Positions 30,755 through 56,661 of a stretch of 64,000 nucleotides of DNA are shown piece by piece (the first letter of the stretch is position 1; every line of letters begins with the position of its first letter). A program made the translations under genes and the position numbers. The DNA lies in the NCBI GenBank assembly GCA_963812015.1, contig CAWETI010000002.1:1613213-1677212 (forward strand), in the 5' to 3' direction. The DNA comes from an uncultured delta proteobacterium. GTDB lineage: Bacteria > Desulfobacterota > Desulfobaccia > Desulfobaccales > 0-14-0-80-60-11. The notes below the pieces were generated by a model. It did not search any database. It was given only the letters and a program-made list of their open reading frames with translations, and was not told where the DNA came from.

Positions 30755-30790
30755 AAACAATCTCCTGAGCGCCTGATATCTTGCGCCGAA

Positions 30791-33156: not shown

Positions 33157-33348
33157 CACGCCCTCCATGCCAATAAGATAAGGAAGCCCAGGCTTCCCGA
33201 GGCATGATCCACCCGGACAAAAAAAATCCTTGAGCCCATGTGGACCCAAGGATTGCACCCAGTTTGCTTGATCCCTGGCTGGGCTGAGGAGATTTGCCAT
33301 CTCTCCGCAGCCCCTGCATCCCCAATGCCTCGTTGGGGCGGCAGTTCA

Positions 33349-33515: not shown

Positions 33516-33530
33516 TAAATGTTGTGACCG

Positions 33531-33565: not shown

Positions 33566-35545
33566 TTAGGCAGGACTGAATTTTATCAGATCCTCAACTT
33601 GGGCCACCACTTCCGGGGCTCGCAGTTCCTGGATCTTATAGTATTTTGCCCCCAGCTTTTCGGCCAGCTCAGGGAGGCAGCTCAGGTTCAAAAACCCCGC
33701 CTCGGTGTCCAGGATCAGGGAGGCGATCTTTAAATCCTTCAGTCGGGCGGCCAGCTCTTTGGCTTCTTCTACCGCCGCCCCGCCGCCCAGACTGATATTG
33801 GCCTTGCCATCGGAAATCAATACCAACAGGAAGGCGTCTTGAGGATGCCGGGCCTTCTGCTTCTGAAGAATTTCATGGGCCAGATGCAGGGCCTGGGGGA
33901 GAGGGGTTTTGCCGCCGGTGGGGAGTTCTTCCAGACATTGTTGGGCTTGCTCCACGCTGTGGGTAAAGGGCAAGGCCAGGTGGGCGTCCTGTCCCCGGAA
34001 AACCACCAGCCCCACCTCCTCCCGTTTCTGATAGGCATCCAGGAGCATGGAGAGGATGGCGCCCTTGGTTTCCACCATCCGCTGATTGGCCCCCATGGAA
34101 CCGCTGGCGTCCACGACGAACAGGATATGATGGCCGATGCGTTTTTCCCGCACCTTGTGGCGCAGGTCGGAATCCGTAATCGCCACGGCCAGGTTGCCTT
34201 TATCCCGCACAGTCTGGTGGGGGGCGGCGGCCCGCAAGGTGGCGTCCAGGGCCAGATCCGGCGGCCCGGCCGGGCTCATGGTGGGGCGCACATAACGACC
34301 GCTCCGGTTATTGGTCTGGGCCCGGGTCCGGCGCCCCTGGGACTCCTTGGACAGACGGTCGTGGGGCAGGTCCAGGGGGCGCACCGGGAAGGGCGAGCCG
34401 GCCTCAAAGGCAGTCTCCCCGCTTCCCGGAGGAGCGTCGGATGGGGGAGGGGGAGGAGGCTCCTCCGGGGGCGGAGAACCGTTTTCCGGCGGCGGATCGT
34501 GGTGATGTTCCTGCTGGTGTTTGCGGATGCTCTCCTCCAGCTTTTCCTGATCCAAACGTTGCTCACTGAGGGGTTTGCGGCGCATCCGATGGGGCAACAC
34601 CAACTCCGCGGCTTCCTGTACATCGGCTTCCGTTACTTCATGCCTCCCTTCCAGGGCCGCCAGGGTCCTCGCCACCTTGAGGATATAGATATCCGCCCGG
34701 TGGCCGTCCACGCCTTGATCCAGGCAAATGCGGATGATCAGGCCCAAGATATCCGTAGTATGGCGCACCTGGGGCAGGCATTCCCGGGCCAGGCAGATCT
34801 CCTGGCGCAATCGCGCCTGTTCATCCCGCCAATCCCGAAAGAAGGCCGCCGGATCATCTTCGTAGGCTAACCATCGCTGCACCACTTCCATGCGGTCCCC
34901 CGGGTCTTGCAAGCCGCTCACCTCCACACAGAGACCGAACCGGTCCAGGAGTTGGGGCCGCAGTTCCCCTTCCTCCGGGTTCATGGTCCCCACCAGGATA
35001 AAACGGGCCGGGTGGGCGAAGGAAATCCCTTCCCGTTCCACGACATTGAGGCCCATGGCCGCAGCATCCAGGAGGACATCCACCAGATGATCATCCAGCA
35101 GGTTGACCTCATCCACATATAAAATACCACGATGGGCCGCGGCCAGGATGCCCGGTTCGAAATGCTTTTCGCCGGTTTTGATCGCTTTTTCCAGATCAAT
35201 GGTGCCCAGCAGGCGATCCTCCGTGGTGCCCAGAGGTAGGTCCACCACGGACATGGGCCGTTCCACTCCGGGGAGGTGTTGATGCTGCTGCAAATGCTTG
35301 AGGCAGGCTTGGCACATCTGCTGAGGTTGGTCCGGATCACAGTGGAAGGGACAGTCGGCCACCACCTTGATGGGGGGCAGCAACTCGGCCAGTCCCCGGG
35401 CGGCGGTGGATTTGGCAGTGCCTTTCTCGCCGCGGATGAGCACCCCCCCCAAACGGGGATTGACGGCATTGAGGATCAAGGCCTTCTTCAAGCGTTCCTG
35501 GCCCACCAGGGCCGCAAAGGGATAGGTGGGATGATTGTCGGTCAT
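33566..35545 (-). CDS. Class I chelatase ATPase, ChlI/ChlD-type fusion (AAA+ and vWA)
   Basis: [25 protein letters not shown], Pro-rich linker, DASGSMG MIDAS. Confidence 0.92.
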
Positions 35546-38500: not shown

Positions 38501-39417
38501 CCCAAGCCCTGGGGGTCGGATTCCCATTCCGCCGCGGTTTTGTAGTAGGAGGTCAATGGCTGGATCAGGGGGATATTAAGCCGGGCCAGCAATGCCTGGC
38601 TGGTTTGGGCCGTGCCACCCTGGCTGACGGTCCCCTTTTGGCTTCCCAGAAAGAAGGCGGTCAGCTTGATCAGGGCGGCTATCCGGGGGCGGCCTTGAGA
38701 ATCAAAAAAATAATCCTGGATAATTTCCAGCCCGCCCCGAGTCCCTAAGCCTTCATCCTTAAGGGAATAATAGAAGACCGGGATCACCCCTATGCCGCGG
38801 CTCTCCAGGGCCTGGATGAGGAAATCGTCCAATTCCAGGTTACCCGTGGCCCAATCATGCCGGGAAAACATGATCCCGACCATGGTCTCGGTGGGGAGCC
38901 TCTGGCGCCGATACCAGTCCAGATAGTCGACCGCGTCGGTAAAAAACTGCCCGGCCCGGGGGTGATAGAACCCTTCCCAGGGCAGGTCCTCAGGGGGCAA
39001 GACCGCGAGGTCCAGGTGCAGCACTTCCTTACCGACATAGTTCAGCAGGCGGCGCAAATTTTCTAAGCCGTTGCGGATGATATATTGATAAGCGTTGGCC
39101 GCCACTTCCAGGGGCACGGTGGAGGGACGCCACAGGGATGGATCGGAGCCGGTGGTAATCAGCGGTATCCGGGTGGAGAGATCTTTCAGGCGACTTTCCA
39201 TCTGCTCCCAAAAGGCGTCCGGGGTGCGATATAACAGGATAAAATCCGCCGATTCCATGGCGTCGAGAGCCTGGGCCAGCTTCTCGGGATTTTCTCCCAC
39301 CATTCGATGTGAATAAACCTTGAGATCCAACCAGGGACAATCCCGGCTCGCCTGGTTGAGCAGGGGAACATAGGCGTTCCACATAACGGCTACACCTTTA
39401 ATCGGCGTTGTGGTCAT
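35542..39417 (-). CDS. cobN: CobN/ChlH-family chelatase large subunit
   Basis: [38 protein letters not shown]. Confidence 0.9.
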
Positions 39418-40151
39418 TCGCTATACCTCTTTACGATAATGATCCCTAAAGCGATGCAGCCCAGCATATATACCGTCAGCACCATCAGCGAGCCCAACCC
39501 CGCCAGGGTCCAGGTGGGAAAGCGCAGCAGGTGGTTGGTATGGGTCAGGGGCAGGCAGTGGATGATCCCCCGGACCAGCCAGGGCATTTCATTCACCGGA
39601 AAGAAGGTGCCGCAGAAAAAAGCCATGGGCATAATCAGGAAGTTGGTGAAGGTGGCGGTATCTTCATGGGATCGGGACCTCATCCCCACAATTACTCCCA
39701 GGGCGGCAAATAAGGCGCAGTTCAAGAGCAATGCCAGGATAAACATCAGGCTCATTTGAACGTGGCCGCCTAAAAGCCATCCCAGCCCCAATAAGATCAG
39801 GGAGGCGAACAGGCCCCGGGCCAAGCCGGCCAGTAATTCTCCCACCACAATAGCCGCGGCCGAAACCGGCGCCTGGACATAGACCTGAAAGGTGCGGAAA
39901 TGGAGGCGGCCCACGGTCAGGCTGTTAGCCACCCAGGTATAGGCATTGGTCATGGAGCTCATGGCAATGAGCCCGGGCAGCAAGTAGTCCAGATAGGAAG
40001 TCCCCGGGATGGTCACCCGTTTGCCCAACCCCAGTCCGAAGGCCACGAGATAGAGCAGGGGGGCAAATAGGGCCGAGACCACGTAACCCAGGCGGAGCAA
40101 GCGGCGCTGGAAGAGCAGGATTTCCCGGTAAAAAATGGGGAACCAGTTCAT
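39414..40151 (-). CDS. ABC-2 type permease
   Basis: YLDYLLPGL, FFCGTFFP, PLTH. Confidence 0.85.
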   Translation of the reverse strand: MNWFPIFYREILLFQRRLLRLGYVVSALFAPLLYLVAFGLGLGKRVTIPGTSYLDYLLPGLIAMSSMTNAYTWVANSLTVGRLHFRTFQVYVQAPVSAAAIVVGELLAGLARGLFASLILLGLGWLLGGHVQMSLMFILALLLNCALFAALGVIVGMRSRSHEDTATFTNFLIMPMAFFCGTFFPVNEMPWLVRGIIHCLPLTHTNHLLRFPTWTLAGLGSLMVLTVYMLGCIALGIIIVKRYSE

Positions 40152-40984
40152 TGGGTCAGCCTTTCCCCGGTAAGCTGGATAAAGACGTCTTCCAGATTGA
40201 CCTGCCGGATGATGACCTCACAATTTTCCGTCTGGGCGCAGGCGTAGGCCGTGGTTTTATCCTTTGCCAGGTGATACTCCCGTTTGCCGTTATGGGTGGA
40301 TTCCACCACGTAGCCGCCCAGGCGGGCCACCAGGGTCGCAGGGGTATCCAGGGAGATGAGGCGGCCGCGGTTCAAGATGCCCACCCGGTCGCACAACATC
40401 TCGGCCTCTTCAATGTAATGGGTGGTGAGCACAATGGTAATCCCCTCCAGCTTGAGTTCCCGAATCAGGCTCCATAATTGCCGCCGGACCTGGGGGTCTA
40501 ATCCCACCGTGGGCTCATCCAGAAACAAAACCTGGGGACGAGAGATGAGGGCCCGGAGGATCAGGAGCCGTCGCTGCATGCCCCCGGAGAAGCCTTTGAC
40601 CAAATGATGGGTTCGGGCGCTCAGGTCGCCGAAGTCCAAAAGCTCTTGGATCCGGTTTTTCAGATCGGGAACCCGGTAGAGCCGTCCATAGATCCACAGG
40701 TTTTCATAGGCGGTCAGCTCCTTGTCCAGATTGATCTCCTGGGGACAGACCCCCAGGAGCCGCTTGACCTGGAGCGGTTGGCGCACCACATCAAAGTTTT
40801 GGATTTGAGCCGTGCCCCGGGTGGGCCGAGCCAGGGTGGTCAAAATCTTAATCGTGGTGGTCTTGCCGGCCCCGTTGGGTCCCAATAAGCCGAAGATTTC
40901 CCCCGGGGGGATTTGCAAAGATAGACCCTCCAGGGCCACCACCTCCTGATACTCCTTGCCGAGATTGTCGGTAACGATCATCAT
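40148..40984 (-). CDS. ABC ATP-binding protein (DrrA/NodI-like)
   Basis: GPNGAGKTT, FSGGMQRR, LDEPTVGLD. Confidence 0.9.
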   Translation of the reverse strand: MMIVTDNLGKEYQEVVALEGLSLQIPPGEIFGLLGPNGAGKTTTIKILTTLARPTRGTAQIQNFDVVRQPLQVKRLLGVCPQEINLDKELTAYENLWIYGRLYRVPDLKNRIQELLDFGDLSARTHHLVKGFSGGMQRRLLILRALISRPQVLFLDEPTVGLDPQVRRQLWSLIRELKLEGITIVLTTHYIEEAEMLCDRVGILNRGRLISLDTPATLVARLGGYVVESTHNGKREYHLAKDKTTAYACAQTENCEVIIRQVNLEDVFIQLTGERLTQ

Positions 40985-40995: not shown

Positions 40996-41763
40996 TTATG
41001 TTAGTTTGGGGTACAACAGCCTTTGGCCGCCCTGGCAGATCATGCCCACTTCCAGCCCGTAAAGATGGGCCATGGTTTCCGGACCGATGACGTCCGCCGG
41101 GCGGCCCTGGGTCACGATCCGGCCGGCCGCCAACAGGATGACTTGATCCGCGAAAACCAGGGCCAGGTTGGGGTCATGAAGGGTCAGTAACACCGTCAGC
41201 CCCTGTCGATGAGCCAGATTCCCGATCAATTGCAGGATCATCACCTGATTCCTAAAGTCCAGGTGGTTGGTGGGTTCATCCAAAAGCAATACCTGGGGCT
41301 CCTGGGCCAGGCACCGGCCCAGCAAGGCCAGTTGCCGCTCGCCGCCGCTGATCCGGGTATACGGCTTGTCCGCCAAATGTTTGATTCCCAGGAGTTCGAT
41401 AATCTCCGTTACCACTTCGCGATCCCGGGCCCCCGGCTGGGACCAGAATCCCACCCGGGAGAGCCGGCCCAAGAGCATCACCTCCCGGACGGTGTAAGGG
41501 AAAACCGGGTGATGCTCCTGGGGCACAATCGCCAGCACCTGGGCCAGGTCCCGGGTCTTGAGCTCTGCGAGGGGCCGGTCGGCCAGCACGATGTCTCCCT
41601 GGAGGGGGATTATCTGGGCGCTGAGGCTCAAAAGGAGGGTGGTCTTCCCCGAGCCGTTGGGCCCCAGGAGGACCGTGACTTCCCCCGGCCGCGCCTTAAG
41701 GTTCACCTGGTGGAGAATGAGCTGGCCGTTGAGCCGGACGCTGAGATCGTTTACGGCAATCAT
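40996..41763 (-). CDS. FecE/BtuD-family ABC ATP-binding protein
   Basis: GPNGSGKTT, ISGGERQL, LDEPTNHLD. Confidence 0.9.
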   Translation of the reverse strand: MIAVNDLSVRLNGQLILHQVNLKARPGEVTVLLGPNGSGKTTLLLSLSAQIIPLQGDIVLADRPLAELKTRDLAQVLAIVPQEHHPVFPYTVREVMLLGRLSRVGFWSQPGARDREVVTEIIELLGIKHLADKPYTRISGGERQLALLGRCLAQEPQVLLLDEPTNHLDFRNQVMILQLIGNLAHRQGLTVLLTLHDPNLALVFADQVILLAAGRIVTQGRPADVIGPETMAHLYGLEVGMICQGGQRLLYPKLT

Positions 41764-42752
41764 AGGCTCCAGGATTCCGCCCCGCCCCGCTTCAAGAGAT
41801 AAATGAAGAAAGGGGCCCCGAACAGGGTGGTGATGATGCCCACCGGGATTTCTCCTCCCACGATGGTGCGGGCCACCGTATCGGAGAGCACCATGAAGCT
41901 GGCGCCCGCGGCCATGGACAGGGGGATGACTCGCCGGTGGTCGGGCCCCACCAGCATCCGGACTATATGGGGGATCATCAGACCCACCCAGCCGATGATC
42001 CCGGTGACGGAAACCGCCGCAGCCACCGTCACCGCCGCGGCCAGGATAAACAGCCCCCGTTCCCGGCCCACATCCACCCCCAGGGCCCGGGCCTCAGCGT
42101 CTCCCATGGACATGGCATTGAGGCGCCAGCGCCCCAGCCAGATGAGGACGGCTCCCGCCAGGATCCAGGGCCCCGCCTGGCGTACCGCCCGCCAGTCGGC
42201 CTGGGACAGGCTCCCCATGAGCCAGAAGACGATGCTGGCCAGCTTCATGGGGTCCACCATAAACTTGATAATGGAGACCAGAGCTGTAAAGAAGGCGGAC
42301 ACCACCACCCCGGAGAGGATCAGGGACAGGGTCGGGACCTCCCGGCGGGTTCGGGCCAGGGTGAAAGCCAGGAAGGCCGCGATCAGGCTGAAGATAAAGG
42401 CTCCCACTTGAATGGGCAGGGCTGGGACCAAGGCCACGGAGAGGGCGCAGCCAAAGGCCGCCCCGGCGGATAACCCCAGGATAAAGGCGTCCACCAGGGG
42501 GTTGCGGAACACGGCCTGAAGGGTGGCGCCGGAGGCCGACAGGCCCAATCCCACCAACATCCCCAGGACAATGCGGGGCAGCCGGATATCAAAGACGATG
42601 CTCTGGATCTGCACTTCTTTGCCGTGACCGGATGCGAGCACGTGCCACCAGGCCCGCCAAGGCACCGGGTAGGCCCCCACCTGCATCGCCATGAGGAAGG
42701 CCGGTAAGGGGGAGAGCAACAGCAGCCAGTAGACCCAGGTGCGGGGCCTCAC
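41760..42752 (-). CDS. FecCD-family permease
   Basis: IRLPRI, FRNPLVD, GWVGLMIPH; GTG start after GAGGAG. Confidence 0.9.
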   Translation of the reverse strand: MRPRTWVYWLLLLSPLPAFLMAMQVGAYPVPWRAWWHVLASGHGKEVQIQSIVFDIRLPRIVLGMLVGLGLSASGATLQAVFRNPLVDAFILGLSAGAAFGCALSVALVPALPIQVGAFIFSLIAAFLAFTLARTRREVPTLSLILSGVVVSAFFTALVSIIKFMVDPMKLASIVFWLMGSLSQADWRAVRQAGPWILAGAVLIWLGRWRLNAMSMGDAEARALGVDVGRERGLFILAAAVTVAAAVSVTGIIGWVGLMIPHIVRMLVGPDHRRVIPLSMAAGASFMVLSDTVARTIVGGEIPVGIITTLFGAPFFIYLLKRGGAESWSL

Positions 42753-43741
42753 GGCGTCTCCTCGTAAGGGATACCGAAACATTCCCGGTAGAAGCTATCA
42801 GCGGCCTGACGAAACTCCGCCGGGGAGATCTCTTGGGGAAAAAAGCAGTGGGCCATCCACCAGGCCAGGACCACCACTCGGGGCGACCAAGTAGAAGACC
42901 GGTCGGCCTTAAACACCCGGCCCGTTTTCACCGCCTGGACGTTCTGCCACTTGGGGTCCCTTAGCAGGTCGGCGACCCCGTAGGAGGCGGAACCCCAGAT
43001 CAGCACCACTTCGGGATTGAGGTCCACCATAGTTTCCATGGACAGTTCCTGGTTGAAGTTATCCACCTTGCCGCCCAGGTTGATCCCCCCCGCCAGGGTG
43101 ATGAGCTCCCCCACCACCCCTTTATTGCCGGTGATGGTGGTGGGCTTGCCCCAGAGCCACACCACCCGGGGGTGGGCCGCGGCCGGGATTCCCGCCAGGC
43201 GTTGCTTCAAGGCCTCGAAGTGACGGGCCATCAACTGCGTCACTTTTTCGGCCCGCTCGGCCTGCCCCAAAAGCCTTCCTATTCGCAGGGTGTCCCGGCG
43301 GATATCATCCAACCCCTCGGGATAGAGGGTGAACAAGTGGAATCCCTGACGCCGCAAAAAATCCACCTGCTCCGGTCTGCGGTCCCAGGTCACCACCATG
43401 TCGGGCTTCAGGGCCATCAGGGCCTCCACGTTGGCGACAAACCCGGTGCCCGGCGAGGGAATCTCCTGGAGATGGGGCACCACCCGTTTCAGCAAATCAT
43501 TGTCATAGGCGTACCGGGAAATCCCCACGATGCGATCCCAGGCCTGGAGCGCTGCTACGGTTTCATAGAATTCGAAGAGGACCACCCGGTGCGCCTCCTG
43601 GGGAGAGTTGCCCCCCGGGGGGCCCAGGGGGCACGGCCTCTCGGGAAGGGCCCCCTGGATGGGCCCGGTGAGGCCCAGGAGCAGCACCAATCCGCCCATC
43701 GCCCAGGCCCACCGGGAAGTTTTGGAGATTCTGTCAGCCAT
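42749..43741 (-). CDS. Periplasmic binding protein (FecB/BtuF class)
   Basis: Signal peptide, NVEALMALKPD, VQAVKTGRV. Confidence 0.85.
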   Translation of the reverse strand: MADRISKTSRWAWAMGGLVLLLGLTGPIQGALPERPCPLGPPGGNSPQEAHRVVLFEFYETVAALQAWDRIVGISRYAYDNDLLKRVVPHLQEIPSPGTGFVANVEALMALKPDMVVTWDRRPEQVDFLRRQGFHLFTLYPEGLDDIRRDTLRIGRLLGQAERAEKVTQLMARHFEALKQRLAGIPAAAHPRVVWLWGKPTTITGNKGVVGELITLAGGINLGGKVDNFNQELSMETMVDLNPEVVLIWGSASYGVADLLRDPKWQNVQAVKTGRVFKADRSSTWSPRVVVLAWWMAHCFFPQEISPAEFRQAADSFYRECFGIPYEETP

Positions 43742-43760
43742 CAATTGCCTGCTCCTTGCC

Positions 43761-46103
43761 TCAATATTTCAGCGTCAGCATGCTCCAGATGGTCCGGCCG
43801 GGAGTCCGGTAGTAGTAGTAGTATTCCCGGTTAAGGATGTTATCCACCGCAAAGGACATGTCCACATACTTCACCGGGCTAAAGATTATTTTTGAATTCA
43901 GGGTGAAGAAAGGATCGTAGGCGCCGTAAACCCCATAGACAGAATCGCCGTTGTCATCCCGGGCCGTCAGTCTGGAGGCATAACGGCCTGAAAGGTTGGC
44001 CTTGACCTTCCAGTAGGAAGCCGTGACCCCAAAGTTGAATTGCTGCCGGGGGGTATAGGTGAGATTTTTGCCCACCGTGACCGGATTATAGGGGTTGTTC
44101 CTGATCCTGGGGTCCACCAGGGTGGTGTTGCCGAAGACTTCCAGCCAGGACCAGAGCTTCTGGTTAATTTCTATCTCCACCCCTCGAATCTGGGCCTTGG
44201 CGGCATTAAAATAATTCTGGGTCTTGCCCGTTGGATCGGTAGGATCAGTAGTCCGGTAAATCAAGTCCTTGACGAAATTTTGAAAATAGGTGGCGGTGAA
44301 CGTGGTCCCTTTAAAGGGTTTCAGGGTGGTGCCGACCTCCCAGGAGAGGGCGGTCTCGGGTTTGAGATCGGGGTTGCTCTTATACAGGGTGCCGGTGCTG
44401 GACTGCCAGGTGACGTAGAGTTCGTAAATATTGGGGGCCCGGAAGGAGCGGCCCACCGAGGCTTTCCAGGTCATCCAGTCCCAGGGGCGGTAGAGCGCGG
44501 CGAGCTTGGGGCTGACCGCAGTTTGGTCCCGGCTGGGCAGGTCCACAATGGGAGTGCCGGTGGCCTTCATGTAACTGCCCCCAAAGGTCTCCCACCGATC
44601 CAACCGCACCCCCAGCACCGTATTGAACTTGGGATGCCAGGCGATTTCATCCTGAAGATAGGCCCCGATATTGCTGTCCCGGCCGCCGCCCAGGGAGCTG
44701 AAGTTTATATACGAACCGGGACTGCGCCAGTTGTACAGGTTATACTGCGAGTTGCGCGCCCAGCCGGCATTGTAGGAGAGGCCGCCCACGAACTGCTGCT
44801 TCTGGCCGATGGCCTGGTCCACCTGCACCTCCCCCACCCAATTCTGACTGGGAGTGCTGGACACGGTCCCCGGGCCGCCGCCGAAGGTGGTCAGGGCGCT
44901 GGTGGAACTGGGCGTGGTGTACCAGTTTTCCGGCTGGTTCACCAGGCCGAAATGGGACTTGAGTTTCGTGGTTTCCGTAAGCTTGTTTTCGGACGTCAGG
45001 TTGTATACTTGGGTATTGTTGCGTCCATCGCCGTTGCAAAAGAGGCCTTGCTGGAGACTGCTGAATTGCGTGTTGGTGCCTAACAAGCCGACGGTGCCAC
45101 TAGTCACCCTGGCGCCAGTGGCTGAATTGTTCAAATAGGAATGGTACATGTCATAGCCATAGTCGTAATAGCTCTGCAAGGTGCTGAACTCCACCTTATG
45201 GCCCGGGGCAATATCCCAGCTGATTTTGCCGTTGAAGCTGTAATCATTCCAGTTATTATCGCCGGTATCGCCGATGGTGTTCGTCCAGCCGCCGGTGGTC
45301 GTCTGGGTGGGTTGCCAGCCCAACACACTGGTTTTGGTCGTCTTGGCTAAGGCGGCGGTGGTTTTTTGCACCAGGCTGGTGGGATAACCGGTGGAGATAC
45401 GATAATTGAATCCCGCCTGGATGCTTACTTTATCCCAGAGACGATCGCCCGCCCCCAGGTAGTAGGTCCAGGCATCGTAGGTGCCGTAACCGCCCTGGGC
45501 CAGCATTTCCAGTTTCTGGGGGGTCTTGGTGATGATGTTGATGACCCCGCCCATGGCGCTGCCGCCGTAGAGGGCGGAGAACGGCCCTCGGATCACTTCG
45601 ATCCTTTCGATATTCTCCACCGGTATGCTATTCCAGATCACAGTGTTGGTGTAGGCGGTGGAGACATTCTGGCCATCCAGCAAGATCAGGGTGCGTTTCT
45701 GGTTATCTCCGGGAAAGCCCCGGAGATTCACATTAGCCAGGGTGTCCTGCCAGCCCTTGCCCCGGCGGTCGAAGGCCCCGGGGACCTGGGCCAGGGCCTC
45801 GTCCACCGTCTGGATGTTCTGTTTCTTAATGTCCTCTTTGGTGATGATCGTAATGCTAGCCGGGACGTCGTCCGGATTCCTCTCGGTCCGTGTGGCCGTC
45901 ACCACAATCTTCTCCAAGGCCTCGGCCTTTTCTTTCGGAGCCGGGGCGGGAGCTGGGGTTGCCGCCTTTTTACCTTCATCCGGGTCCACCACCGTCACCT
46001 TGTCCTCTGCTTCCTGGGCCCACGCCGGGGACTGCACCCCGAGGGTCAATACGCACGAGAACGCCATAATCACTCCAAACCAGAGCCCACGCCGCATTTG
46101 CAC
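43761..46103 (-). CDS. TonB-dependent receptor
   Basis: IVVTATRT TonB box, IERIEVIRGPFSALYG, NPDLKPE, C-terminal aromatic residue. Confidence 0.92.
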   Translation of the reverse strand: MQMRRGLWFGVIMAFSCVLTLGVQSPAWAQEAEDKVTVVDPDEGKKAATPAPAPAPKEKAEALEKIVVTATRTERNPDDVPASITIITKEDIKKQNIQTVDEALAQVPGAFDRRGKGWQDTLANVNLRGFPGDNQKRTLILLDGQNVSTAYTNTVIWNSIPVENIERIEVIRGPFSALYGGSAMGGVINIITKTPQKLEMLAQGGYGTYDAWTYYLGAGDRLWDKVSIQAGFNYRISTGYPTSLVQKTTAALAKTTKTSVLGWQPTQTTTGGWTNTIGDTGDNNWNDYSFNGKISWDIAPGHKVEFSTLQSYYDYGYDMYHSYLNNSATGARVTSGTVGLLGTNTQFSSLQQGLFCNGDGRNNTQVYNLTSENKLTETTKLKSHFGLVNQPENWYTTPSSTSALTTFGGGPGTVSSTPSQNWVGEVQVDQAIGQKQQFVGGLSYNAGWARNSQYNLYNWRSPGSYINFSSLGGGRDSNIGAYLQDEIAWHPKFNTVLGVRLDRWETFGGSYMKATGTPIVDLPSRDQTAVSPKLAALYRPWDWMTWKASVGRSFRAPNIYELYVTWQSSTGTLYKSNPDLKPETALSWEVGTTLKPFKGTTFTATYFQNFVKDLIYRTTDPTDPTGKTQNYFNAAKAQIRGVEIEINQKLWSWLEVFGNTTLVDPRIRNNPYNPVTVGKNLTYTPRQQFNFGVTASYWKVKANLSGRYASRLTARDDNGDSVYGVYGAYDPFFTLNSKIIFSPVKYVDMSFAVDNILNREYYYYYRTPGRTIWSMLTLKY

Positions 46104-46300
46104 TCTCCTTCCGCTTTGAGTTTGCGCCTCGGCCCTGGTTCTGATAGAAAAAGAGTGGGCCGATCTTCCGCATTGAGGATTGGTCTGAAGGAGGGGCTGG
46201 GACTCTTGGCGGGGTGCCGCCCCTCCTTCCTGTTACCGCATTCTTTCTATTAAGACCTCTCTGCCGTCAGGACCCTGTCAGCCTCGGCCCTCACCAGGCG

Positions 46301-46442
46301 AAAAAAAAGACCACGATTATCAAGCGGCGTTTTGCCGCCAGACCTTCGTGGCCATTCAAATACTTCTGAGAATTTTAGCTATCCGAAAGGGCTTCATGCC
46401 CTTCGACGGTTTCTATATAGCCCCTCCCGCAGGTGCTGTCAA
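46301..46442 (-). promoter_or_regulatory. Promoter + twin-hairpin/terminator leader (copy A)
   Basis: TTGACA-17-TATATA; GGGC-ATGAA-GCCC; GGCC-ACGAA-GGTC overlapping CCACGA..TCGTGG + T8. Confidence 0.8.
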
Positions 46443-46505
46443 GCAATAATCCGGGGCAGTCAAAAGCACATGCAGGTTTCTCGCCTTTCAGGATTCTTTG
46501 ATCGG

Positions 46506-46646
46506 GGTGATGTCCATTAAATTGTGGAAATTTGTCTCAGGTTTTTACCCCTACAGTTCTTGTTGAGCATTTGGATGATGCCATACAGGATACGGTCGGA
46601 GCTGGCCTCATTGGTGAAACAGTTGTTCATGGGTCGGGTGCGCCGG
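46506..46646 (-). mobile_element. IS256-family remnant (transposase C-terminus and right end)
   Basis: Reverse strand RRTRPMNNCFTNEASSDRILYGII..., ending atttccacaatttaatggacatcacc, like IS256-type IRs. Confidence 0.6.
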
Positions 46647-46744
46647 GGTTCCCCAGCCGTGGTGAAGGCCAACTTCAGCGAATATTTACAACGGCATCTC
46701 TGATCATTCAGCTTCCGCAGGCGACCTAACCCGCTTCCTGGGGG

Positions 46745-46933
46745 TTATTTCTCCACAAGAACGATTCTATGGTTCACCAGATTAAGCCGGTGGATGTCAG
46801 CCCTGATAACTCTTTGTTCGCCGAAAATGTTGACCACGCGCAGACCGTCCCCTTCGGGTTCGATGATGTCTACATCCGCCAACAATAATTCCTCTTGACC
46901 GTTTTTCATAACATAAGCGGTAGCTTCACACAT
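46745..46933 (-). CDS. CooT-family nickel-binding protein (Sm-like, Pfam 'predicted RNA-binding')
   Basis: MCEATAY..VNIFGEQR..LNLVNHRIVL; Cys2 conserved; 62 aa. Confidence 0.85.
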   Translation of the reverse strand: MCEATAYVMKNGQEELLLADVDIIEPEGDGLRVVNIFGEQRVIRADIHRLNLVNHRIVLVEK

Positions 46934-47393
46934 GTTTCATCACCTCTCTTAAGCGTTGGGTAATAACTTTCTCCACCAAGTGGGGCAGGGGTTCGGGAAC
47001 TAGCCCCACAATCTCCACCCGAGCCCGGGTTAAGGGCAGGAGAAGCTTAGGAGCCGGGGCCAACAAGATGGCCTCGGCTATGTGGGGTGTAACTTCCCCC
47101 ATCATGGCGTGGGCTAAAACGATAGATAGGGTTCCCAGGATTGCGTGCGCTTGGGGGACTGTTTGGACAATGGCATTTTCGCCGCTAGCTCCCCGGTTGG
47201 CCCTGGCCTTCATCATTTGGGCTGTGGCCACGGCGTTGGTCCCCAGCGCGATAATTTCGTATTCTTCTCCGTACTCCTCCTTTAGACGTTTAATAAGAGC
47301 TACGCCGATGCCGCCCCTCTGGCCGTCAATGACACAAATGCGAGGTCTGTTCCCTTTAAAGGTAGACCTGATTTCTCCTTGGGCTCCTGTCAT
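46926..47393 (-). CDS. DUF3842 family protein
   Basis: ICVIDGQRGGIG, ALGTNAVAT, GASGENAI, MMGEVTP; start uncertain. Confidence 0.85.
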   Translation of the reverse strand: MTGAQGEIRSTFKGNRPRICVIDGQRGGIGVALIKRLKEEYGEEYEIIALGTNAVATAQMMKARANRGASGENAIVQTVPQAHAILGTLSIVLAHAMMGEVTPHIAEAILLAPAPKLLLPLTRARVEIVGLVPEPLPHLVEKVITQRLREVMKHV

Positions 47394-47488
47394 GCGGTCT
47401 CCTGAACCAGACATCGGGGAATGTCGACCTCCCGTAAATCCCAGGAGGCGGTGACTGGACTAAGCAAAATTATTGATATGCGTCCACT

Positions 47489-48325
47489 TCAATCATTGCT
47501 CAGACGAAATGCCAGGGGGACTTCGATGGTCAACTTCTGGCGGTTGAGTTCGGCTGGGAAGGGAGGAAATTTCCCCACCCGGCGCAGGGTATTCTGGGCA
47601 GCCTCATCCAGAAGGTCCTGACCTGAGGAGCGGCTGATCCGCGCACCTTCGATTTGCCCCCCGGAGCCGATAGTAAACACTAGCGCTACTACTCCTTGAA
47701 TATTGCGGCGGCGGGCTATGAGGGGATAATCTTTCTGCTTTTCCAACAGCCGGCGAACCTCTTTGAGATAGCCTTGGAGCGCCGAACCGGCGCCTGAGCC
47801 CGGCCCCTGGCCTTGGCCAATACCACCGCCGGCCCCGTCCCCCCGTCCCCCGCCTTGGCCCCCCTCGCCGGTGCCCGAAAGGCCGCCCGGGCCACTGGTC
47901 CTGCTTCTGGTGATCGCGGTATCAGAGGGTTTAGCCCTGGTGATCGCGGGTGGCGGCGCCGGCGTAGGGATCACCGGTCCTGCGACGGGTTCCGGCGGCG
48001 GCGCCGGTTTGACCTTGGGCCGCGGTTTCGGCTTAACCTCAGGTTTGGACGGGGGGGAAACCGGCGGCGGTTTGGGGGTGGCGGGCTCAGGCCGGGTCAC
48101 GGGGCCGGGCCGGCCGCCGCCACCCCCGGCGGGTCCCGATTTGAAGGGGACCAGGGCGATGGCTTCCACCGGCACCACCACCCGGGGTTTCGATGGTCTT
48201 TCGTGAAAAGCAAGGATCACCGCGACCACAATCAGGACATGAACGACCACGGAACCCACTATGCCCCAGGACCAGGCGCCTCGAGAATTCCAGGGCTCGT
48301 CTAACCCTTGGTAACCGCTGGCCAT
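47489..48325 (-). CDS. tonB: Energy transducer TonB
   Basis: N-terminal TM with His, Pro/Lys-rich linker, YPLIARRRNIQG, SSGQDLLDEAA. Confidence 0.9.
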   Translation of the reverse strand: MASGYQGLDEPWNSRGAWSWGIVGSVVVHVLIVVAVILAFHERPSKPRVVVPVEAIALVPFKSGPAGGGGGRPGPVTRPEPATPKPPPVSPPSKPEVKPKPRPKVKPAPPPEPVAGPVIPTPAPPPAITRAKPSDTAITRSRTSGPGGLSGTGEGGQGGGRGDGAGGGIGQGQGPGSGAGSALQGYLKEVRRLLEKQKDYPLIARRRNIQGVVALVFTIGSGGQIEGARISRSSGQDLLDEAAQNTLRRVGKFPPFPAELNRQKLTIEVPLAFRLSND

Positions 48326-48327
48326 GG

Positions 48328-48723
48328 CTATTTCTGGTCTACCTCGATGCCAATGCGCTGGACCTTCAGACCCCGGAGGCGGTCAATGACTTCAATGAGC
48401 CGCCCGTGGCGGGTGTCCGTATCCGCGGCAATAATGGCTTGGGGCTCCTTCCCCTGGTGCTGGGCCGCAAACACCTTTTCAAAATCGTCATCTTTTGTCA
48501 GCTTTACCCCATTGACCGCGATATGACCTTCCCGGTCGATGCTGATGATAATGGGGACGCTTTCCAACTTGTCGGCCTGGGTGGCTTTGGGCAAGGCGAT
48601 GGCGAAGGTCCGGGGCATCATTACCGTGGCCGCCAACAGAAACACGATGAGGATGACCAGAACGATATCCACGAAGGGGGTCATGTTAATTTCGGTGATA
48701 GGCCCGTGAATGTTGCCTTTCAT
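48328..48723 (-). CDS. exbD: Biopolymer transport protein ExbD/TolR
   Basis: EINMTPFVDIVLVILIVF. Confidence 0.9.
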   Translation of the reverse strand: MKGNIHGPITEINMTPFVDIVLVILIVFLLAATVMMPRTFAIALPKATQADKLESVPIIISIDREGHIAVNGVKLTKDDDFEKVFAAQHQGKEPQAIIAADTDTRHGRLIEVIDRLRGLKVQRIGIEVDQK

Positions 48724-49415
48724 ACCGTTCTCCCGGCTTGCCGGACGGAGGGGAAGAGGTCTTTATCGGGAGCGGCGATTTCCCCGGTCCCAGCCGCGTC
48801 ATCCAGGTGGGCCAACAGCAGTTGCTCCAGAAACCGGCAGCGCTCCTGGACCACGTGCAGGCGGCGATGAAAAAAATTGAACATCATCACCGCGGGAATA
48901 GCTACCAGCAACCCGATGGCGGTGGCCACCAGGGCCTCGCCGATACCAGCCATCACCGCGGGGCCGCCGCCCCCTTCGGTCAGGGCTAAATCTTTGAAGG
49001 CATGAATAATCCCCAGAACAGTGCCGAACAGGCCGATGAACGGCGCATTGGCTCCCAGGGTCCCCAGGAAACTCAAGCGCCGCCCCAGAAAGAGACCCAC
49101 CCGGATCCGCTCACCCTCCATGATGTCCTGGACTGCACTCTTGCCCCGGGGAATTTCCCGGAGGCCGGCCACCAGCACCCGGGCTTCCATGCCGGGTTCC
49201 GCCTCACACCGGGACATGACTTGGGGCCAGTCGCTTTGCCGCAGCAACGGTTCAATCTCAGCCACAAAAGATTCGAGATTGAACCGGTAACGATAGAAAG
49301 CCAAAGCCTTGTCGAAAATGATCGCCAGAGAAGCGACGCTCAACCCCAAGAGCAGCCACAGCACCCAGGCGCTACCGCCCAGGGCTATATTAAGCAGGGC
49401 CTTGGTTATGTCCAT
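48720..49415 (-). CDS. exbB: MotA/TolQ/ExbB proton channel
   Basis: APFIGLFGTVLGI, GIGEALVATAIGL; start MDITK after GGGAGG. Confidence 0.9.
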   Translation of the reverse strand: MDITKALLNIALGGSAWVLWLLLGLSVASLAIIFDKALAFYRYRFNLESFVAEIEPLLRQSDWPQVMSRCEAEPGMEARVLVAGLREIPRGKSAVQDIMEGERIRVGLFLGRRLSFLGTLGANAPFIGLFGTVLGIIHAFKDLALTEGGGGPAVMAGIGEALVATAIGLLVAIPAVMMFNFFHRRLHVVQERCRFLEQLLLAHLDDAAGTGEIAAPDKDLFPSVRQAGRTV

Positions 49416-49426
49416 GCATCCTCCCG

Positions 49427-49577
49427 AAAAAAAACAAGCCATGCTGCTGCGATCCTTCCGGACCGCGGTTGCCTTCATGGCTTGGATTCACTCTATTGAG
49501 TTGCTTAGTTCGATCTTCAGGGAGTTCAATCTCCCTGGATAGCAAAAATTATAGTTCTCCTCTGCATCGGATGTCAA
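49427..49577 (-). promoter_or_regulatory. Promoter + twin-hairpin/terminator leader (copy C)
   Basis: TTGACA-18-TATAAT; CAGGGAG-ATTGAA-CTCCCTG; GCC-ATGAA-GGC overlapping CAAGCCATG..CATGGCTTG + T8. Confidence 0.75.
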
Positions 49578-49648
49578 CCAGAATCGTTTTGCAGGCTCAC
49601 CCGGTGGAAACGATGGCTTGCTTGGTTTCCTTCCCGTTAAATTATTGT

Positions 49649-49794
49649 TTGACAACATCTCCGTACGACGCTATATAAATGGGAAATTATCGGGGGGCAT
49701 GAAGCCTGCCCGCATAGAAGAGCTCGCAAACAGGTTTTAATTGGCCACGAAGGTCAGGCGGCAGAACGCCGCGTGATTTTCGTGGCTTTTTTTT
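49649..49794 (+). promoter_or_regulatory. Promoter + twin-hairpin/terminator leader (copy B)
   Basis: TTGACA-17-TATATA; GGC-ATGAA-GCC; GGCC-ACGAA-GGTC overlapping GCCACGA..TCGTGGC + T8. Confidence 0.8.
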
Positions 49795-49835
49795 CTGGTG
49801 TGGCCTGAGTTCCAAGAGCCTGCGGAGAGGGATTT

Positions 49836-51974
49836 ATGGCAAGGGCAGCAATTCTTATTTGTACTTGCATGATTTGGACAGCCCTTAGCGCCTGGGGGTG
49901 CTGGGCAATTGGAACCGCTTGCGCCGAGGACGCGTCGGGGGGAACTGTCCCCACGGTGACCTCTTCTCCCGAGACGGGCAAGACCCCAAAGGACACGGCC
50001 CAATTGCCCGAGATAGTGGTGCAGGAGCGCAGCGACAGTATGCTCGGCATTGCTGATACCTCGACGCAGGGAACGATTGGCGCCAAAGAACTGATGGATC
50101 GCCCCATCTCGCGTCCCGGAGAGGTGCTCGAGGCCATGCCCGGAGTCATCGTCACCCAGCATAGCGGTGACGGCAAGGCAAACCAGTACTTCCTGCGGGG
50201 CTTTAACCTCGATCACGGCACCGATCTGGCTACCTTTGTCAACGGGATTCCCATCAACCTGCCGTCGAACGCCCATGGGGAAGGGTACACGGATCTTAAT
50301 TTTCTCATTCCTGAACTGATCCAGAGAATAGACTACCAGAAAGGACCCTACTTCGCAAACGTGGGTAACTTCGGCTCCGCGGGCTCTGAAGACATTGTGT
50401 ACTTTCAGAAGCTTCCCGCCGGGATTGCAAAAGTCGAATACGGAAGCTGGAACTATGAGCGCGCGTTGCTGGCCGACTCGGTGAAGCTCGGGCCGGGCAA
50501 CTTCCTCTTCGCCCTTGAAACACAGCACACCGACGGGCCATGGTCAACCCCCGAAAATTACATAAAGTTCAATGGATTGCTGACCTATAGCCAAGGGGAC
50601 AAGAGCAAAGGCTTCAGCGTGACAGCCATGGGCTATCACGCCCCCACGTGGAATGCGACCAACCAGATCCCTGCGCGCGCAGTCGCGGAAGGGCTCATCT
50701 CGCGTTTCGGAAACCTCTCCCCCTCGGACGGCGGTTATACGGACCGCTATACCCTGCAGGGTGAATGGCACCAGGCCGATAAGGACTCCACTACTAAAAT
50801 CATGGCATATGCTTATTATTACAATATGGGCCTCTGGAATAATTTCACCTTTTTCCTGAATGATCCCGTCAATGGGGACCAGTTCGAGCAAAGGGATACC
50901 CGGTGGGTGCAGGGAGTCAGAGCCACCCGCACATGGTTCGGCAAATTGGGCGACTCTCCGATGGAAAACACTCTCGGGCTCGACGTTCGCAACGACGCGA
51001 TCCATGACGGCCTTTACCACACCGTGGACCGCGTGGTGATCGGCGTCACGCGTGTCGACAATGTTGTGGAAACCAGCCTAGCGCCCTACTTCGAGAACAA
51101 GTTACAATGGTTTCCGTGGTTTCGCACCGTTGCGGGCTATCGCGAAGACTTCTACAGGATGCATAACCACAGCGACCTTGCCGCTAACAGCGGCACTGTC
51201 TTGGCCACTGTCCCGGAGCCAAAATTCTGCGCGATCTTCGGCCCCTGGGCAAAGACGGAATTCTATCTCAACGGCGGCCTCGGCTTCCACACAAACGACG
51301 CGCGCGGTGCGAACACCACCGTCGATCCGAATACGGGCCTCCCGGTGCCCAAGGCTGTACCTCTGGTGCAATCGCAAGGAGCTGAGATCGGCGTGCGCAC
51401 GCTTGCCGTGCCGAACCTGCAAAGCACGTTGACGTTTTGGGCGCTCGACCTGAATTCCGAACTGGTGTTCGATGGGGATACGGGAACGACCGAAGCGACT
51501 GGCCCCAGTCGCCGCCTCGGCATAGAGTGGGCGAACTACTACACACCGACGAAGTGGCTTACGATCGATGCCGATTTTGCCGACTCCCGGGCGCGTTACC
51601 GCGGACACCCCAGCGAAGGAAACTACGTCCCCGAGGCAGCGCAATTGATCATCAACTCGGGCATCACGGTGCACGATCTCTACGGTTTTTCCACCAGCCT
51701 GCGGGTGCGCTATTTCGGGCCCCGCGCTCTCACCCAGGACGACAGCGAACGATCCCATAGCACCACCCTGCTCTACTACATGCTCAGTTACAAAATCAAC
51801 CAGATCTGGTCGATCCGCGGAGATATCTTTAATCTTCTCAATACGAAAGCCGCCGATATCACCTACTACTACGCCTCTCGGCTGCCGGGGGAACCGGCCC
51901 AAGGCGTGAACGACTTCATGTCTCATCCAGCAGAGCCGCGCACCGTCCGTGGTTGGGTGACCGCGAACTTTTGA
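49836..51974 (+). CDS. TonB-dependent receptor (putative metal uptake family)
   Basis: QHSGDGKANQYFLRGFNLDHGTD plug, HPAEPRT, C-terminal F. Confidence 0.9.
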   Translation: MARAAILICTCMIWTALSAWGCWAIGTACAEDASGGTVPTVTSSPETGKTPKDTAQLPEIVVQERSDSMLGIADTSTQGTIGAKELMDRPISRPGEVLEAMPGVIVTQHSGDGKANQYFLRGFNLDHGTDLATFVNGIPINLPSNAHGEGYTDLNFLIPELIQRIDYQKGPYFANVGNFGSAGSEDIVYFQKLPAGIAKVEYGSWNYERALLADSVKLGPGNFLFALETQHTDGPWSTPENYIKFNGLLTYSQGDKSKGFSVTAMGYHAPTWNATNQIPARAVAEGLISRFGNLSPSDGGYTDRYTLQGEWHQADKDSTTKIMAYAYYYNMGLWNNFTFFLNDPVNGDQFEQRDTRWVQGVRATRTWFGKLGDSPMENTLGLDVRNDAIHDGLYHTVDRVVIGVTRVDNVVETSLAPYFENKLQWFPWFRTVAGYREDFYRMHNHSDLAANSGTVLATVPEPKFCAIFGPWAKTEFYLNGGLGFHTNDARGANTTVDPNTGLPVPKAVPLVQSQGAEIGVRTLAVPNLQSTLTFWALDLNSELVFDGDTGTTEATGPSRRLGIEWANYYTPTKWLTIDADFADSRARYRGHPSEGNYVPEAAQLIINSGITVHDLYGFSTSLRVRYFGPRALTQDDSERSHSTTLLYYMLSYKINQIWSIRGDIFNLLNTKAADITYYYASRLPGEPAQGVNDFMSHPAEPRTVRGWVTANF

Positions 51975-52968: not shown

Positions 52969-53166
52969 ATGATTGGAAGTGATTTGAAATTGTGGCGGAA
53001 GAGATGGTCGATTACCCAAGTGGACCTGGCCCGGAGGCTGGGCACCTGCCAGGTGACCATCGCCAGGTGGGAGACAGGTGCGAGAAAGATCCCTTTTCTC
53101 TTAGCTCTGGCCCTGGAGGCCCTCGAAAACCAAATGAAGGAGGGTAGACATGGCAGTAAAGGTTAG
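52969..53166 (+). CDS. XRE-family HTH protein (regulator/excisionase candidate)
   Basis: ITQVDLARRLGTCQVTIARWETG; overlaps integrase start. Confidence 0.8.
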   Translation: MIGSDLKLWRKRWSITQVDLARRLGTCQVTIARWETGARKIPFLLALALEALENQMKEGRHGSKG

Positions 53167-54298
53167 GGAACGACCCAAGGGCTCCGGGGAGTGGTGGGTT
53201 TTCATTGACCACCAGGGAAAGCGCAAGGCCAAGAAGATCGGCAGAGACAAGAGGTTTGCCCAAGAGGTGGCCAAGAAGATTGAGGCCAGGCTGACTCTTG
53301 GTGATGTGGGGATTACGGATGAAAGGCAGAAAAGTCCCCTGTTCAAAGATTACGCCGAACTCTGGCTTAACGGCTATATCAAAGGGATGCGCCGGAACTC
53401 CACCTTTGTGCGCTACAAGGATATTTTAACTCGCTACGTTTACCCGGCCCTGGGGAATAAGCCGGTTGACGAAATTAAACGGGGGGAAATCCGGGACCTA
53501 CTTCTTAAACTGAATACCAAGGGGTTAGCCCGGGCCACCATCTGCCTGGTGCGGGACGTGATCAGCGGCCCCCTATCCTTCGCTCACGATGAAGAACTGA
53601 TACCTGTGAACCCCATAGTGGGCATTACCAAACGTCTGCAACTCCGACGGGAGAAGAAGACGGTTATCGAGCCCTTGACCGGGGAGGAAGTTAGCCTGTT
53701 CCTTGAGACGTGCGTTGTCAGGACCACGGAATACTACCCCTTCTTCCTGTGCGCCTTCCGCACCGGGATGCGCCTGGGAGAACTCTTGGGGCTCCAATGG
53801 GGCGATGTGGACTGGCATGGGAGGTTTATCAAGGTTGAGAGATCATACAAACTTGGCCGGATAACCCCCACCAAAACCGGCAAGGTGCGCCGTGTGGATA
53901 TGTCGGACCAGCTTATTGAGGCCATGAGTAGCCTACATACCGAAAGGAAAAGGGAAGCCTTACAGGAAGGCCGTGGTGAATTTGTGGAAACAATTTTTCA
54001 TCGGGCTGGGAAACCGATGGAGCAAAATTACATTCGCCGGGTGTTCAAAAGAATCTTGGTACAGGCCGGGCTTCGGGAAATCCGGCTGCACGATATAAGA
54101 CACACCTTCGCCAGTCTGCTATTAAGCGATGGAGCCAGCCCGGTGTATGTTAAAGAGCAATTAGGCCATAGCAGCATTCAGATGACCGTGGACATTTACG
54201 GGCACCTGATTCCCAGCAGTAACCGGGAGATGGTAAACCGCTTAGATTCGCAACTATCCGCAACCCAGCCGCAACCTAATAAAATAGGAAAGGCGTAA
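53150..54298 (+). CDS. Tyrosine recombinase / phage integrase
   Basis: Arm-binding N-terminus; TGMRLGE, HDIRHTFAS, LGH, catalytic Y (DIYGH). Confidence 0.95.
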   Translation: MAVKVRERPKGSGEWWVFIDHQGKRKAKKIGRDKRFAQEVAKKIEARLTLGDVGITDERQKSPLFKDYAELWLNGYIKGMRRNSTFVRYKDILTRYVYPALGNKPVDEIKRGEIRDLLLKLNTKGLARATICLVRDVISGPLSFAHDEELIPVNPIVGITKRLQLRREKKTVIEPLTGEEVSLFLETCVVRTTEYYPFFLCAFRTGMRLGELLGLQWGDVDWHGRFIKVERSYKLGRITPTKTGKVRRVDMSDQLIEAMSSLHTERKREALQEGRGEFVETIFHRAGKPMEQNYIRRVFKRILVQAGLREIRLHDIRHTFASLLLSDGASPVYVKEQLGHSSIQMTVDIYGHLIPSSNREMVNRLDSQLSATQPQPNKIGKA

Positions 54299-54329: not shown

Positions 54330-54416
54330 TGGTGCCGAAGCGGGGATTTGAACCCCGACGAGGAAACCCTCACTGGACCCTGAACCCAGCGCGTCTACCA
54401 GTTCCGCCACTTCGGC
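54330..54416 (-). tRNA. tRNA-Leu(CAG)
   Basis: GCCGAAG acceptor stem, CTGGG-TTCAGGG-TCCAG anticodon arm, long variable arm, GTTCAAATC, CCA end. Confidence 0.95.
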
Positions 54417-56585: not shown

Positions 56586-56661
56586 GCGGGCATAGCTCAG
56601 CTGGTAGAGTACAAGCTTCCCAAGCTTGGTGTCGCGGGTTCGAATCCCGTTGCCCGCTCCA
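56586..56661 (+). tRNA. tRNA-Gly(CCC)
   Basis: GCGGGCA acceptor, CAAGC-TTCCCAA-GCTTG, GTTCGAATC, CCA end. Confidence 0.95.

Follow-up and report, generated by a model that had tools for sequence, protein, structure and literature searches.

The stretch of DNA analysed here (the window) comprises 64,000 nucleotides (nt) of contig CAWETI010000002.1 in assembly GCA_963812015.1, from an uncultured delta proteobacterium of the order Desulfobaccales. Between positions 46,301 and 49,794 it holds three RNA leaders, A, B, and C, placed before genes for TonB-dependent uptake: a receptor gene behind A, the exbB, exbD, and tonB genes behind B, and a second receptor gene behind C (Table 1). The three are genuine promoter–leader–terminator units that share one architecture. 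Judged from sequence and covariation, they are members of a widespread, conserved, and uncatalogued family of transcription-attenuation leaders.

Architecture of the three leaders

Each unit starts with a sigma-70-like promoter (spacer of 17–18 nt between the −35 and −10 boxes), followed by a first small hairpin (H1), a second one (H2), and a terminator. The stem of H2 has 3–4 base pairs (bp), and the whole of H2 is contained in the 5′ arm of the long terminator hairpin. The terminators are of the intrinsic type, with a GC-rich hairpin, eight U residues immediately after it, and covarying helices; in leader B, the terminator directly adjoins the Shine–Dalgarno sequence of exbB. For every leader, the folding energy beats that of 200/200 shuffles (z = −3.4, −4.0, and −5.6). 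H2 alone amounts to −2.5 to −3.1 kcal/mol vs. −25.7 to −33.4 kcal/mol for the terminator (A, B, and C).

An earlier note on this DNA had described three leaders with a common design of promoter, twin hairpins, and terminator; they are located where it placed them and recur in relatives. It had also described an overlap between H2 and the 5′ arm of the terminator, which in A, B, and C is in fact complete. Two details have to be corrected. The AUUGAA loop, ascribed there to copy C, belongs to the second listed copy (B, 49427–49577), and the spacings between hairpins, given as 48, 48, and 51 nt, measure 48 (A), 52 (B), and 48 (C) nt from the H1 loop to the H2 loop. The inner hairpin reported within the terminator is present; what had escaped attention is the NGAA loop often found at the terminator apex (H3 in the following).

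A conserved family with two exclusive folds

Further copies in the source genome were located by BLAST and covariance models. Contig C3 has a paralogous divergent pair, in which an exbB-type leader (B2) shows 93% identity with B and its partner, copy D, precedes a TonB receptor/ABC operon. Copy E precedes the only CbiM gene of the genome, a CbiM+PDGLE fusion, after which come CbiQ- and CbiO-like open reading frames (ORFs; assigned by position and size). Copy F (C2:741871–741979) precedes the gene for a secreted protein of 358 amino acids (aa), and a 1219-aa ORF comes next.

A covariance model built from copies A, C, and D (R1) finds the element in 69 of 151 related genomes. A second model (R2), rebuilt from 32 hits and used for genome counts at E ≤ 1e-3, finds it in 95 of them: 67/68 in the family of the window (f1), 14/14 in a sister family (f2), and 13 from other parts of the phylum. 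These counts are lower bounds, since the default filters of both models miss the diverged exbB leaders (B and B2); leader B scores 22.1 bits under R2 and is detected with filters off only. In the source genome, a weak R2 match (26 bits) lies at C3:1061552–1061644 (plus strand), ∼0.5 kilobases (kb) past the cbiO-like gene. With GCCACGAAGGC and a fitting terminator but no clear H1, it is possibly a copy that has degenerated or lacks H1.

The phylum at large was sampled with a strict pattern (RCCAYGAAGG, 14–45 nt, TYRTGGY, 0–2 nt, TTTT) in 301 evenly drawn genomes. It matches 90 of them, and the reversed control pattern none (0/301). A looser pattern (CCAYGAAGG...YRTGG...TTTT, 123/301) included chance hits, as seen on inspection of G313, G338, and G341, and the stricter one was therefore adopted. 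Variants of the leader are present in named Desulfosarcina, Desulfamplus, and Desulfarculia records and in a metagenome-assembled genome of the Thermodesulfovibrionales; an NGAA tetraloop is common in their H1. Some leaders of Desulfosarcina TonB receptors (L202 and L204) keep the CCACGAAGG terminator with an H1 devoid of any GAA loop and, given such cases, recognition of H1 may not be universal.

Conservation was read from 93 R2 hits (E ≤ 1e-6) aligned to the model, a procedure that favors the modeled structure. The inner stem of H1 is paired at 92%, and its closing pair takes all four Watson–Crick forms (GC 29, CG 12, UA 11, AU 7, with UG in 5). The terminator helices are paired at 94.8% and 94.9%; their covariation score is reached by 0/500 shuffles, and all slid controls are far lower. 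The alternative H2 is paired at 94.4%, with AU 47, GC 19, GU 8, and other combinations 19 at the outer pair, and GC 78, GU 9, AU 5, and one other at the next. As the pairing of H2 and that of the terminator are both kept with covariation, two mutually exclusive folds are maintained. Homologous leaders with covariation, for which a genome search had been proposed in the earlier note, are thus numerous, and both folds covary.

The loops are conserved and the stems variable. In H1, the loop is AUGAA in 63 hits, AAGAA in 9, ACGAA in 7, and different in 14; in H2, it is ACGAA in 81, AUGAA in 10, and different in 2. The apical H3 loop is NGAA in 48/93 and another NGNA in 21/93. From loop 1 to loop 2 the distance is 43–49 nt in 82/93, with a free linker sequence, and from loop 2 to the H3 loop it is 16–18 nt in 80/93. 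Within the linker, GAA occurs in 71/93 (∼45.5 expected from shuffles) and UGAA in 41/93 (∼14 expected). Immediately upstream, 80/93 hits have a promoter-like site.

With AUG or UUG in the H1 loop and 13-codon frames in A, B, and C, ribosome-mediated attenuation through a leader peptide comes to mind; the promoter and terminator that every unit owns would also suit free-standing small RNAs. Both are very improbable. The AUG is not conserved (the loop is AUGAA in only 63/93) and frame length varies, paralogue D stopping after 7 codons vs. 13; for these two reasons leader-peptide attenuation was rejected. As to small RNAs, each unit is directly followed by uptake genes in the same orientation, and the terminator of copy B, as mentioned, abuts a Shine–Dalgarno sequence.

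The leaders do not correspond to a known RNA family. At the gathering score, Rfam 15 leaves them unmatched and yields in the window only a cobalamin riboswitch (33339–33526, minus strand) and two tRNAs; at E ≤ 10, the region 46150–49950 gives chance-level rows only (plastid rpl20 3′ untranslated region, a small nucleolar RNA, a microRNA). These scans, the check proposed in the earlier note, bear out its view that the leaders are unlike the cobalamin, NiCo, and Moco riboswitches. No description of the leader was found in the searchable literature, subscription journals lying outside that search. Together with the metal uptake genes downstream, these negatives agree with its suggestion of a possibly undescribed antitermination regulon, protein-dependent or ligand-sensing, for the import of metals or tetrapyrroles.

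The design recalls the leaders read by ANTAR proteins (EutV, NasR, AmiR). There too, two small hairpins have variable stems and loops that are conserved and alike, and H2 arises out of the terminator 5′ arm, so that stabilization of H2 leads to read-through (PMC3369931). The leaders here likewise have a pair of hairpins with stems of 3 bp or more, H2 overlapping the 5′ arm in question, and the AUUGAA loop in H1 of copy B happens to show A1 and G4. The ANTAR target, however, is defined by hexanucleotide loops with A1 and G4, and the eut leaders have linkers of 5–12 nt (PMC3369931). The leaders here have A-N-G-A-A pentaloops (an H1 hexaloop occurs in 1/93), the long loop-to-loop spacing given above, and frequently a third NGAA loop. 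The ANTAR domain (PF03861) has 0 matches in the source genome, where the search controls are silent too; the earlier note had likewise seen no ANTAR gene. Among the 151 relatives it is present in 31, that is, in 1/68 of f1, 0/14 of f2, and 30 others, and it is thus nearly absent from the families that carry the leader. For its loop form, its spacing, and this absence from nearly all carriers, an ANTAR-type reader was rejected, and antitermination by an EutV/NasR/AmiR-like regulator has next to no probability left.

Genes behind the leaders and the probable signal

A downstream ORF is present for 92/93 hits, and 88 first ORFs were scanned by Pfam (E ≤ 1e-5), omitting the two window receptors, copy D, and one ORF common to two tandem leaders. 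The most frequent family is CbiM/Nik(MN) (22/88, many fused to PDGLE), followed by TonB-dependent receptors (11/88), outer-membrane proteins (channels) of the Phenol_MetA_deg type (9/88), DUF3842 (8/88), DUF4198 (7/88), and CooT (3/88), with OprB and FmdE once each. Without a Pfam match at that threshold are 26/88, of which 17 are 330–394 aa long. The second ORFs contribute CbiQ, CbiM, binding proteins, TonB, and CooT. Control of metal import genes, as proposed in the earlier note, agrees with this content, which includes a CobN-type chelatase. In Desulfosarcina variabilis, with about 23 leader sites, 19 first ORFs were scanned: seven encode TonB receptors and two periplasmic binding proteins, while FecCD, CobN, DUF3786, DUF3450, flavodoxin, GNAT, and methyltransferase are found once each and three ORFs have no Pfam match.

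The Nik(MN)-type fusions and NikK-like DUF4198 proteins, and likewise CooT, are families reportedly assigned to nickel in Rodionov's comparative work. NikR_C has no match in the source genome (99.86% complete), while the control matched in 5/14 genomes, and B12 uptake in this genome is under cobalamin riboswitches of its own. Because these nickel families are present, NikR_C was not found, and B12 uptake is separately controlled, we infer that the leader-controlled genes form a nickel uptake regulon, possibly a nickel/cobalt one, with nickel as the signal. Rodionov and colleagues reportedly placed nik(MN)QO, NikK-like proteins, TonB receptors, and outer-membrane proteins in delta-proteobacterial NikR regulons, and the gene content here is similar. 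Unlike NikR, which is a repressor acting on DNA, the control would here go through a terminator in an RNA leader. A response to nickel or cobalt at the RNA level would be shared with the NiCo (czcD) riboswitch (Rfam RF02683); that riboswitch, however, is a four-way-junction aptamer turning on exporters, whereas importers follow the leaders here, and the NiCo family is absent from both whole-library Rfam scans.

In the window, the gene row behind leader A runs from the receptor to a ChlI/ChlD-like protein and, with its close-packed ORFs on the same strand, is probably co-transcribed (Table 1). The CobN-type chelatase thus shares a gene row with a leader-controlled receptor; CobN also follows a leader of Desulfosarcina variabilis (L215). 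Directly past the CobN/ChlID genes lies the cobalamin riboswitch and, behind it, a B12 salvage/uptake unit, so that this unit and the nickel-type unit of leader A stand back-to-back. The two types of unit adjoin a second time at copy F, where a cobalamin riboswitch (C2:743458–743644, minus strand) is found ∼1.5 kb upstream. Just downstream from the receptor of leader C, a phage-type integrase gene lies beside two tRNA genes, possibly at the edge of an integrated element.

Table 1. Positions of the leaders, of the genes behind them, and of neighboring features in the window
Feature	Coordinates	Strand	Remarks
Leader A, whole unit	46301–46442	−	R2 score 104.2 bits
Leader A, promoter	−35 TTGACA 46437–46442; −10 TATATA 46414–46419	−	
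Leader A, H1	46384–46405	−	loop AUGAA
Leader A, H2	46341–46353	−	loop ACGAA
Leader A, terminator	46309–46353; apical hairpin 46324–46339; U8 46301–46308	−	
TonB-dependent receptor	43761–46103	−	first gene behind leader A; Pfam Plug + TonB_dep_Rec_b-barrel
Periplasmic binding protein	42749–43744	−	leader A gene row; Pfam
FecCD permease	41760–42782	−	leader A gene row; Pfam
ABC ATPase	40996–41763	−	leader A gene row; Pfam
ABC ATPase	40148–40984	−	leader A gene row; Pfam
ABC-2 permease	39414–40151	−	leader A gene row; Pfam
CobN-type chelatase	35542–39417	−	leader A gene row; Pfam; 1291 aa
ChlI/ChlD-like AAA+VWA protein	33566–35545	−	leader A gene row; Pfam
Leader B, whole unit	49427–49577	−	diverged copy
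Leader B, promoter	−35 TTGACA 49572–49577; −10 TATAAT 49548–49553	−	consensus match 12/12
Leader B, H1	49517–49538	−	loop AUUGAA
Leader B, H2	49471–49481	−	loop AUGAA
Leader B, terminator	49435–49484; apical hairpin 49449–49466; U8 49427–49434	−	apical loop GGAA
exbB	48720–49415	−	first gene behind leader B; Pfam
exbD	48328–48723	−	leader B operon; Pfam
tonB	47489–48325	−	leader B operon; Pfam
DUF3842	46926–47414	−	leader B operon; Pfam
CooT (PF10133)	46745–46933	−	leader B operon; Pfam E 3e-24; PDB 6fan E 2e-13
Leader C, whole unit	49649–49794	+	R2 score 102 bits
Leader C, promoter	−35 TTGACA 49649–49654; −10 TATATA 49672–49677	+	
Leader C, H1	49691–49712	+	loop AUGAA
Leader C, H2	49743–49755	+	loop ACGAA
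Leader C, terminator	49743–49786; apical hairpin 49757–49772; U8 49787–49794	+	apical loop AGAAC
TonB-dependent receptor	49836–51974	+	behind leader C; Pfam Plug
Cobalamin riboswitch	33339–33526	−	119.9 bits
B12 salvage/uptake unit	25953–33300	−	152-aa ORF, TonB receptor, binding-protein–CbiZ fusion, second binding protein, FecCD, ATPase
Phage-type integrase	53150–54298	+	
tRNA gene	54333–54416	−	
tRNA gene	56586–56658	+	

Candidate readers and alternative mechanisms

The reading that we put forward, with chances that we hold to be about even, is that of a nickel-responsive antitermination leader read by a trans-acting factor other than an ANTAR protein, which would bind the NGAA loops. Transcription would start a few bases before H1. 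In one fold, the long intrinsic terminator and its U-run would stop transcription before the uptake genes. In the other, three small hairpins (H1, H2, and H3) would each display an (A)NGAA loop, and H2 (RRCC-A[C/U]GAA-GGYY) would sequester the 5′ arm of the terminator. A trans-acting factor is proposed because H2 alone is far too weak against the terminator. When nickel is scarce, the factor would recognize the NGAA loops and hold H2, and RNA polymerase would read through; when nickel is sufficient, it would release the RNA, the terminator would form, and transcription would stop. This direction of regulation, like the existence and the identity of a protein reader, is what we infer for the system.

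Two proteins encoded in the regulon, DUF3842 and CooT, are candidates for the reader. In the source genome, the pair occurs in the exbB operon of the window and once behind rsmD-coaD without a leader; in relatives, it often follows a leader directly. CooT comes next after DUF3842 in 35/40 loci, mostly with an 8-nt overlap of start and stop; in the window, the overlap (ATGTGTGA) is at 46926–46933 on the minus strand, and in locus L002 at 1501–1508. This overlap, which the majority of the 35 loci share, points to translational coupling, with DUF3842 and CooT made in a fixed stoichiometry. Several relatives (L045 [G041:C44], L039, L057, L078, and L106) have two leaders in tandem or flanking the pair. 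The order in the flanked loci is leader, DUF3842, CooT, leader, CbiM, the pair being boxed in by its putative target. Among the 301 genomes, the strict pattern and DUF3842 occur together in 82, the motif only in 8, DUF3842 only in 35, and neither in 176. CooT is found in 182/301 genomes and in 87 of the 90 with the motif (cross-read by eye).

The identity of CooT is supported by the profile match, by the fold (from a model of the coaD-linked paralogue), and by the conserved Cys2: Cys2 and His55 are invariant in 37/37 aligned sequences, and the paralogue behind coaD, 71% identical to the CooT of the window, gives a model that matches PDB 6fan with a template-modeling score (TM) of 0.93. Beyond CooT entries, the fold brings up weak RimM/Sso7d-like rows only, too weak for use (E 0.06–0.8). 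DUF3842, of which one homologue has Desulfobacca acetoxidans as its source name, is modeled with confidence as a Rossmann-like fold that contains a DGQGGGIG loop, with no informative structural neighbor: it has no sequence match in the PDB, Foldseek returns nothing at E ≤ 1e-3, and a broader structure search gives generic Rossmann-like matches (Z 8–9.5) that say nothing about function. As for publications on DUF3842, the sole paper found in the searchable literature appears unrelated.

To our knowledge, the only role ascribed to CooT so far is that of a chaperone supplying nickel to CO dehydrogenase. The leading candidate for the reader is the dimer of nickel-binding CooT, together with DUF3842, to which CooT seems translationally coupled: nickel-free CooT, alone or with DUF3842, would grip the NGAA loops of H1, H2, and H3 and so prevent termination, and Ni(II) bound at Cys2/His55 would cause release of the RNA. 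That CooT, with or without DUF3842, is the factor reading the leader is a tentative assignment, on which we would rather bet against than for.

Several points weigh against the nickel signal and this pair of readers. The only CbiM system of the genome could transport cobalt too, and the Desulfosarcina variabilis sites before CobN, methyltransferase, flavodoxin, and GNAT genes imply that the signal may exceed nickel. The DUF3842 model has no RNA-binding relative among its structure matches, CooT is acidic by sequence, and the authors of the Rhodospirillum CooT structure reportedly saw an Sm-like fold but nothing that would support an involvement in RNA metabolism. Among the 90 motif genomes, 8 are without a DUF3842 match, 3 without CooT, and 2 without both (G134 and G235, each with a single pattern match), and the 35 genomes with DUF3842 only have no strict-pattern match. 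Since related genomes are not independent, the two-by-two table of motif and DUF3842 overstates the link. That link, in any case, would fit nickel chaperones belonging to the regulon equally well as it fits a reader.

In one alternative, the reader would be another RNA-binding protein, for instance a HutP- or TRAP-like oligomer reading repeated triplets, and the two proteins would be no more than nickel-trafficking cargo. In hut antitermination of Bacillus, the small oligomeric HutP, which requires its ligand and a divalent metal, recognizes short RNA motifs that are repeated; they make up two sites, and the terminator 5′ arm contains one of these. A reading of repeated short motifs, one site being in that arm, is also proposed here; the HutP motifs, though, are single-stranded UAG triplets, and those of the leaders are hairpin loops. 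The three NGAA loops and the excess of GAA and UGAA in the linker would suit such an oligomer, neither DUF3842 nor CooT has the fold of a known RNA binder, and induction of metallochaperones by metal starvation is a common design. We still hold this alternative unlikely, as no further family travels with the leaders in the ∼90 loci, a survey of loci made without a whole-genome phyletic screen.

A protein-free riboswitch is the other alternative with some weight. The NGAA loops would then dock onto each other (kissing) or onto the conserved CCACGAA/UUCGUGG helix, and a small ligand would shift the balance between H2 and terminator. Ni2+ or Co2+ bound to guanine N7 could be such a ligand, and so could a nickel chelate or else a metabolite reporting the need for nickel. 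A precedent for kissing is given by the two ACGR loops of guanidine-II (mini-ykkC). Guanidine-II also consists of two look-alike small hairpins with a variable linker and the loop letters A-C-G-purine; it has ACGR tetraloops where (A)NGAA is found here, and it controls guanidine exporters at translation, unlike the nickel uptake genes that stand behind a terminator here. In the leaders, the conserved nucleotides are few and repeated in two or three loops, and loop spacing is tightly constrained while the linker sequence is not. Position 2 is C or U in 91/93 for loop 2 and mostly U or C for loop 1, so that, in our reading of the counts, a pair could form between position 2 of either loop and G3, which is invariant, in its counterpart. 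The motif genomes without DUF3842 or without both proteins would also be accounted for. On the other hand, about 11/93 hits have A or G at position 2 of loop 1, which would break the kissing pair, the Rfam models of guanidine-II and NiCo are unmatched in both scans (gathering score and E ≤ 10), and, for a metal pocket that has to be selective, the conserved core is very small. Moreover, an H2 stabilized by its ligand would turn the uptake genes on; were the imported metal itself the ligand, this direction would be wrong. A riboswitch is a minority prospect, to be taken as seriously as the CooT assignment and more so than another RNA-binding protein.

Under the antitermination reading by a trans-acting factor, as under a riboswitch, the outcome would be a new class of sensor, either an RNA-binding metal sensor or a small riboswitch. 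The textbook control of nickel uptake is by DNA-binding repressors such as NikR, and the sole nickel/cobalt-sensing RNA that we know of turns on the expression of exporters. The leaders, in contrast, appear to place an RNA terminator switch before nickel importers, the TonB machinery, and nickel-handling proteins in a large group of anaerobes related to sulfate reducers. Once the element is defined, hundreds of genomes could be annotated better, and orphan genes for TonB receptors, outer-membrane channels, and CobN-like chelatases, of which there are many, could be assigned to a regulon and hence to a likely substrate. What DUF3842 does, and whether CooT has a second role, would likewise become open to concrete tests. 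If the CooT reading holds, this would be the first metal-uptake regulon under a metal-sensing RNA-binding protein, and DUF3842 would gain a function.

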